A DNA stretch of 64,000 bases from Escherichia coli. GTDB lineage: Bacteria > Pseudomonadota > Gammaproteobacteria > Enterobacterales > Enterobacteriaceae. The translations under genes and the position numbers were made by a program. The notes under the pieces were generated by a model that ran no database searches, was not told the origin of the DNA, and saw only the letters and a program-made list of their open reading frames with translations. Shown here piece by piece: positions 25,948 to 27,189 of this stretch. Numbering within the stretch: the first letter of the stretch is position 1; each line of letters begins with the position of its first letter. The stretch lies in the NCBI RefSeq assembly GCF_022846255.1, contig NZ_AP025682.1; one strand, 5' to 3'.

Positions 25948-27189
25948 TTATTTCACCGCTTCATTCAATACGCTATCAAACTTATCCATTGGGCAAAAAC
26001 CGTTGGCATCTATCGGGCAACCGCTTAATTCCAGCGTCACGCGCTGCGCAGGTGCCTGCAGGGTTAACGCATCGGCATTACGTAACTGTTCCGCACTCTG
26101 GTACACATATTCAATTTTCATCAGGTCGCGATTGGCTTTGCTGTCATGCCAACGCTGGAAAACGATTTTGCCGCCAATCGGCGTGCGTTCGTTCTGGTCA
26201 TGCAACTGATACGGTTTGAAATCCAGCGCCGTTAACAGAGAGGCAATGTTGGAGTCGTGCCCAACTAATACCGTGATTTTCGGAGCACTGGTGCGATCGG
26301 TGACCAGGGCTTTGTCGATATAACTGACCAGCGGTTTCGCAACATTGCGCGCCACTTCCGGTGAGGTAAACAGGCTGTCCTGGTAACCGTTTTTCAGCTT
26401 CGACAACACCTTCCACTGCTGGTCAGATTTGATTTCTCCCCAGGCCACCTGATCCATCGGAAAACCTTCGTAGTATTGCAAAGTAAACGCATCTACCAGC
26501 GAGTTGCCGACTTTCAGCGGCCCGGAAACGCCCGGTTCTTGTTGATACTTCGCGCTAAAGGTATTTTTGCCATCTACAAGCGAACATTGTTGCTTCTCTT
26601 TACACGCAGGAGAATCTTTATAGTTAACGATTTGTTCCAGTAGCTTGTAGCTGTCGGTAAGCTGGAGTTTGCTGAGCTCTTTCTCCATTGCCGCCACCGC
26701 CTGTTCACTGAATGCGGCGGAATCATCGGTGATCACTGGGTTAAAGGTGGGGTCCATAGTGCCCATTTTTTCCTGGTGATGAACAGGAATATCACACCCA
26801 GGGAATGCGCCAGTAATAAAGAACTGCGCGGTCGCGACGGTGCGTTGCAGACTATTGGCATAGGCATAAACGGTGTCCGGTGGCGGGCATTCCCCTGATT
26901 TCACCATCCCCTGTTCTGCCAGCCATTCACGCATATAATGGCCCATATACACTTCGAGCACGCCCCCTTTAGTGGTGAGCTGCCCACCGGGGACGTCCCA
27001 TTCAGGCCATTTATTCGGCGTCGACTGCTCCAGCACACTGCCATTGTTCGCCAGCGGCGCACGTAAGTTATGGCGGCTCATCATGAGCACTTGCTGTAGC
27101 TGATAGCCTTCCGGTACGGTTTGTGCCTAAGCATTTGAAGCGAGTAAAACTATCCCTGCCACAGTTGCGGCGATTAGCGTTTTGTTCAT
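25948..27189 (-). pseudogene. agp: Periplasmic glucose-1-phosphatase Agp with in-frame amber stop in the signal peptide
   Basis: ATG at 27189 encodes MNKTLIAATVAGIVLLASNA, then TAG at about 27127-27129 where K-12 has Gln, then the reading frame continues as the mature Agp sequence. The ORF-track call starts only at the GTG at 27090, consistent with an upstream stop. Confidence 0.7.

Follow-up and report, generated by a model that had tools for sequence, protein, structure and literature searches.

An amber codon within the signal-peptide sequence of agp in a rarely sampled Escherichia coli lineage

The locus studied here lies in a 64-kb stretch of Escherichia coli DNA (64,000 nucleotides, hereafter the window), where torCAD, cbpAM, agp, yccJ, wrbA, ymdF and the rut operon form the set of neighbours known from the E. 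coli chromosome, and where cbpA, agp, yccJ and wrbA follow one another in the order seen in relatives. The agp gene is carried by the minus strand and no gene follows it on that strand, as yccJ and wrbA converge on it, so that a stop codon in agp would be without polar effect. The features of the locus are as follows.

25916 to 25942, no strand assigned: G+C-rich hairpin between the convergent agp and yccJ genes, a terminator-like site called on the plus strand only
25948 to 27189, minus strand: agp frame (bifunctional glucose-1-phosphatase/inositol phosphatase), 414 codons including the stop codon, broken at codon 21
25948 to 27090, minus strand: residual open frame, of 380 amino acids from the GTG at 27090, or of 378 and 377 amino acids from the ATG codons at 27084 and 27081, respectively
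27124 to 27189, minus strand: signal peptide of 22 residues, MNKTLIAATVAGIVLLASNA-Q/stop-A, delimited by the mature start of 1NT4 and 6RMR
27127 to 27129, minus strand: amber codon TAG at codon 21, CAG (Gln) in relatives, the mutated base being 27129
27190 to 27203, minus strand: native agp ribosome-binding region AAGAGGTGTGAGGA, unchanged and identical in relatives with an intact agp
27299, minus strand: the only other base at which the agp region departs from the nearest relatives, G>A when read along agp, 110 nt before the ATG

Reading and translating the window showed that the agp frame starts with the ATG at 27189, opens with MNKTLIAATVAGIVLLASNA, and meets TAG at codon 21 (27129-27127, minus strand), downstream of which it is free of stops over 392 codons up to the TAA at 25950-25948, the protein ending in VK. 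The substitution at base 27129 is C>T in the agp sense, or G>A on the plus strand, and it stands in the context GCT TAG GCA, which contains no homopolymer and places a G after the stop. Chance need not be considered, since what is observed is one base change in a gene already known. In the ORF list agp is represented by two pieces, namely a 20-aa ORF (27127..27189) and a 380-aa ORF with a GTG start (25948..27090). A sequence-only reading of this DNA had described a frame from the ATG at 27189 that hits TAG at about 27127-27129 and then stays open through the mature protein, coordinates that proved exact in our translation; it had also argued that an ORF call beginning only at 27090 implies an upstream stop, and the 380-aa entry is indeed found there. 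Its statement that K-12 has CAG at this codon agrees with our comparison with K-12 MG1655. A plus-strand ORF overlapping the site (27123..27278; 51 aa) was considered as an antisense feature and discarded, since nothing supports it, and Rfam returned no match within 25,900-27,400, so no RNA gene explains the site.

The identity of the gene is clear once the glutamine at codon 21 is restored. The resulting protein matches the NCBIfam equivalog NF007553 over its entire length (1-413 of 413 residues) with 826.4 bits against a cut-off of 425, and aligns with the PDB entries 1NT4 and 6RMR, both glucose-1-phosphatase, with E values of about 1e-266. The catalytic motifs are kept, SRHNLRAP at residues 38-45 and VGHDSN further toward the C terminus, both aligning to 1NT4 and 6RMR, and the translated frame thus carries the N-terminal RHxxR and the C-terminal HD of the histidine acid phosphatases. 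We take E. coli Agp to be a periplasmic acid glucose-1-phosphatase/inositol phosphatase of that family. What the window lacks, owing to the TAG at codon 21, is an uninterrupted precursor frame with an N-terminal Sec signal peptide. The locus is therefore agp by descent, and not an intact agp gene.

In order to appreciate the state of the surrounding region, the backbone genes annotated in strain MS15236, 31 in number, were mapped onto the window. A counterpart was found for 26 of them, 25 of which have the same length as in MS15236, align without gaps and contain no internal stop, leaving agp as the sole interrupted gene among the 26. The idea of a region that is generally decaying or badly sequenced was rejected on this basis.

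Several other features of the window were recorded along the way. The five backbone genes without a counterpart, pgaABCD and dgcT, are located between phoH and tRNA-Ser in MS15236 but are missing as a block from positions 5754-8272 here, a layout common to 467 complete E. coli genomes; between tRNA-Ser(GGA) (5754-5841) and phoH, the window instead has a 228-aa ORF (5933-6619) whose position matches that of a DUF2726 gene in relatives. The yccE gene, located between cbpA and agp in K-12, is likewise absent (27190-27723), and relatives sharing this layout retain only a 102-base fragment there, annotated as a partial hypothetical protein. Rfam matches above gathering scores comprise naRNA4 (nucleoid-associated noncoding RNA 4; 29013-29091, between torD and cbpM), the ES056 sRNA (64-155), and Ysr251 (7213-7406, antisense to phoH), all of which are expected E. 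coli features. From 35313 to 64000, and past the end of the window, extends a lambdoid prophage that occupies the intergenic region between torT and torS, immediately before the torS start; its junction falls between 35312 and 35313, and the site is empty in the otherwise identical GCA_005387665.1. PHROGs matches identify its tail fibre (44091-46472), central tail fibre J (47198-50677), tape measure (53080-55641) and portal (61742-63343) genes. The torT-side end of the prophage (35767-43800) holds putative ORFs that look like cargo, encoding 397 aa (phrog_2034), 383 aa (no PHROG match), 295 aa (phrog_3736) and 592 aa (phrog_8118), the last with a stretch resembling dCMP deaminase.

We then compared the agp region with that of other E. 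coli. By megablast, the 1,431-base region is present in 5,418 of 5,426 complete E. coli genomes, and the best matches, among which are the uropathogenic strains 536 and F11, are 99.9% identical to it. Strains 23AR0806 and AF22 differ from the window at only two of the 1,431 bases, the C>T at 27129 and the G>A at 27299, while strain 536 shows these two differences plus one more. All three strains are annotated with an intact 413-aa agp and have CAG at codon 21, which is also the outcome of the comparison with close relatives that the sequence-only reading had proposed as a check. The distribution of the mutated base was determined with a 55-mer centred on it, designed in such a way that every 28-base megablast seed must span the site. 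The T-allele probe matched none of the 5,426 complete E. coli genomes, and the C-allele control matched 5,364 of the same 5,426; a TAG-containing 44-mer likewise had no match in JGI metagenome contigs. Everywhere else in the sampling the codon is CAG, the ancestral state. Apart from the stop, the agp coding sequence does not differ from the intact allele, there being no added stops, frameshifts or excess substitutions.

Such rarity raises the question of whether the T at 27129 could be a sequencing or consensus error in a strain that truly carries CAG and an intact agp. The absence of the T allele from the 5,426 complete genomes and from the JGI metagenome contigs would fit an error, as would the fact that it is a lone single-base substitution in an otherwise undamaged gene. 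We therefore looked for the same base in other assemblies, by way of the protein that gene callers derive from the broken frame. For the 380-aa protein that begins at GTG, an exact look-up retrieved nothing; the 378-aa protein that begins at ATG (MMSRHN...) is deposited as BDH33912.1 and GDA41723.1. This second protein occurs on 8 contigs, of which 4 share the context of the window, 2 are interrupted by N and 2 are short. Two of the four contigs sharing the window context were read: (i) the Logan assembly of run DRR322657, which matches the window with 100.000% identity along 11,137 bases, and (ii) contig BFRP01000187.1 of GCA_005387665.1, which is 100.000% identical over 19,365 bases. Both contain the TAG, as well as the G>A at 27299. 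The remaining candidate carriers were rejected. GCA_006232115.1 (SQAX01000254.1) and JGI 3300056410 have CAG and are cut only by runs of N, and the two short Logan contigs, of which one is from SRR12158193, have the gene at their very start and leave the site uncovered. Exact-product look-ups can thus yield false truncation carriers where N runs interrupt the signal-peptide region.

The two assemblies that were read weigh heavily against an error. The Logan contig was made directly from the DRR322657 reads and has the identical base, and so has GCA_005387665.1, a separate draft that differs from the window by a whole prophage: it runs from torT straight into torS and, its prophage site being empty, must represent a clone separate from the genome of the window. 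Moreover, the site contains no homopolymer, and the 25 other mapped genes are free of stops and frameshifts. The T is consequently supported by the reads of at least one independently assembled run and is present in at least two clones. The assemblies sharing the TAG may stem from one laboratory, and some may represent a single strain or a single set of reads; we therefore give the number of independent isolates as at least two. Overall, we regard a sequencing or consensus error as highly improbable. Where the sequence-only reading had left the choice between a recent inactivating mutation and a sequencing error, the first term gains support from these data, and the second is made unlikely by the presence of TAG in the DRR322657 assembly and in GCA_005387665.1. 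The lineage itself is rarely sampled: its exact TorA allele is found on only four contigs on record, whose size classes match those of the four truncated-agp contigs, and all of these, the 378-aa product included, collapse into one place. No sampled member of the lineage has an intact agp.

The position of the stop within the precursor has consequences for what the allele can still do. The crystallised mature chains of 1NT4 and 6RMR begin with QTVPEG, which corresponds to residue 23 of the precursor (Q23). Since the mature protein begins at Q23, cleavage takes place after Ala22 (...A-Q-A), and the amber codon falls at position -2 of the cleavage site. Signal peptidase I is known to constrain only positions -3 and -1. 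It follows that, whichever residue readthrough or a suppressor tRNA inserted at -2, export would be normal and the mature Agp wild type. The inactivation proposed in the sequence-only reading is supported by our analysis, with the qualification that the -2 position had gone unremarked there, and the allele may be leaky and not a strict null.

This leads to a reading in which the amber is decoded and useful Agp is still made, thanks to a suppressor tRNA encoded elsewhere in the genome or to high natural readthrough; in the suppressor variant, a supE-type tRNA-Gln with anticodon CUA, for example, would restore the glutamine exactly. In its favour, the stop occupies position -2, a residue that is removed from an enzyme left wild type, the rest of agp and its ribosome-binding site are untouched, and CAG>TAG belongs to the class of ambers that a glutamine-inserting suppressor reverts exactly, as is established from genetics. 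On the other hand, the only tRNA gene in the 64-kb window is tRNA-Ser(GGA), so there is no suppressor tRNA within it, E. coli ribosomes normally read through UAG at rates well below a few percent, and a G after the stop is not known to make a context leaky. TAG was found in none of the 5,426 genomes and had no metagenome match, nothing suggests a selected recoding signal, and the fact that the TAG is conserved in no other lineage argues against a selected recoding event. Taken together, we consider decoding of the amber with production of useful Agp unlikely. Natural readthrough would make the allele slightly leaky, while a suppressor would make it silent. The more specific claim that this lineage possesses a natural amber suppressor or unusually high UAG readthrough, with Agp still exported and matured to the wild-type form, appears to us very unlikely; if it were true, the TAG would be the sign of an E. 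coli with a natural suppressor and not of a dead gene.

A different route to a product would be a translational restart at GTG34, ATG36 or ATG37, yielding an Agp that is shortened at its N terminus, stays in the cytoplasm and has taken on a new role inside the cell. The 380-aa frame is still open, its 378-aa form has been recorded by gene callers, and the catalytic RHNLR and HD motifs are kept. The predicted anti-Shine-Dalgarno pairing is weak at all three codons (-2.9 kcal/mol for GTG34, and -0.2 kcal/mol for both ATG36 and ATG37) compared with the native start (-7.1 kcal/mol), which makes restart translation an unlikely source of functional protein. In addition, the residual frame has no signal peptide, lacks the first 11-14 mature residues and begins 3-6 residues before the catalytic RHNLR. 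A periplasmic enzyme, the folding of which we assume to be disulfide-dependent, would furthermore need to fold in the reducing cytoplasm, and a sugar-phosphate phosphatase active in that compartment is more likely to be harmful than helpful. A restarted product with a new role within the cell therefore strikes us as extremely improbable. The position of the residual frame agrees with the earlier suggestion that a re-initiated product would lack the signal peptide and would not reach the periplasm.

The explanation that we favour, and which we hold to be very probably correct, is a real C>T transition that changed CAG (Gln) to TAG at codon 21 of agp, that is, a recent nonsense mutation confined to one lineage, resulting in a null or very leaky allele. 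The C>T would have arisen in an E. coli lineage that is seldom sampled and that has the uropathogenic strains 536 and F11 among its best-matching complete genomes. Ribosomes starting at the native ATG would then stop after 20 residues, while still in the signal peptide and two codons short of the signal-peptidase site, so that the normal product would be a useless hydrophobic peptide of 20 residues and no Agp would reach the periplasm. Only rarely should translation resume at GTG34, ATG36 or ATG37, and it should then give a cytoplasmic product without the export signal or the mature N terminus, one that would probably not fold properly and, as Agp is a periplasmic enzyme, should not supply periplasmic activity. 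Rare natural readthrough of the UAG would yield wild-type mature Agp, though at a small fraction of the normal level.

The agp coding sequence being otherwise identical to the intact allele, the event is most probably young, or else the gene is still constrained to some extent; judged from the sequence, agp has recently become a pseudogene or, at most, survives as a very leaky allele. That no further decay has built up is what a very recent event would leave behind, but also what would be seen if readthrough kept the gene in function. The periplasmic glucose-1-phosphatase/inositol phosphatase activity is probably lost. Loss of Agp presumably removes growth on external glucose-1-phosphate together with one periplasmic inositol-phosphate phosphatase activity, and agp is not an essential gene. 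We thus infer that the strain should fail on external glucose-1-phosphate and should lose the share of periplasmic inositol-phosphate phosphatase activity that is due to Agp. A literature search on agp pseudogenes or signal-peptide mutations of agp retrieved nothing relevant, and one on the accession numbers retrieved nothing.

In practical terms, the lineage should be recorded in annotation as agp-defective with an internal stop, and the 378-aa "glucose-1-phosphatase" in GenBank (BDH33912.1) has no signal peptide and is probably never made. The TAG allele could be put to use as a marker of clones from this seldom-sampled lineage and, lying as it does in a peptide that is cleaved off, as a possible natural reporter of amber suppression. 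Beyond correct annotation the finding is of little importance.

Comparison with known systems places the gene as follows. The window gene shares its locus and neighbours with E. coli Agp (b1002; His_Phos_2; 1NT4, 6RMR). Its protein has five amino-acid differences from K-12 Agp besides the stop, and is identical except for the stop to WP_001044300.1, the Agp allele of the closest relatives; in contrast to E. coli Agp, codon 21 is TAG and not CAG, so that normal decoding cannot yield the full-length precursor. The laboratory amber alleles rescued by supE/glnV44-type suppressors offer a second parallel, as they carry the same CAG>TAG change, reverted by a glutamine-inserting suppressor; unlike them, the present allele comes from a natural isolate and was not constructed, and the 64-kb window provides no evidence of a suppressor. 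The gene also resembles the single-nonsense pseudogenes of natural E. coli (annotated by PGAP as "internal stop"), in which one substitution likewise affects one lineage, relatives are intact and no signal of selection is seen. The agp allele described here is an ordinary lineage-restricted nonsense pseudogene of this known kind and involves no new mechanism; it differs from the ordinary cases in that its stop lies in a cleaved signal peptide, at a tolerant position, which should make it rescuable by any suppressor.
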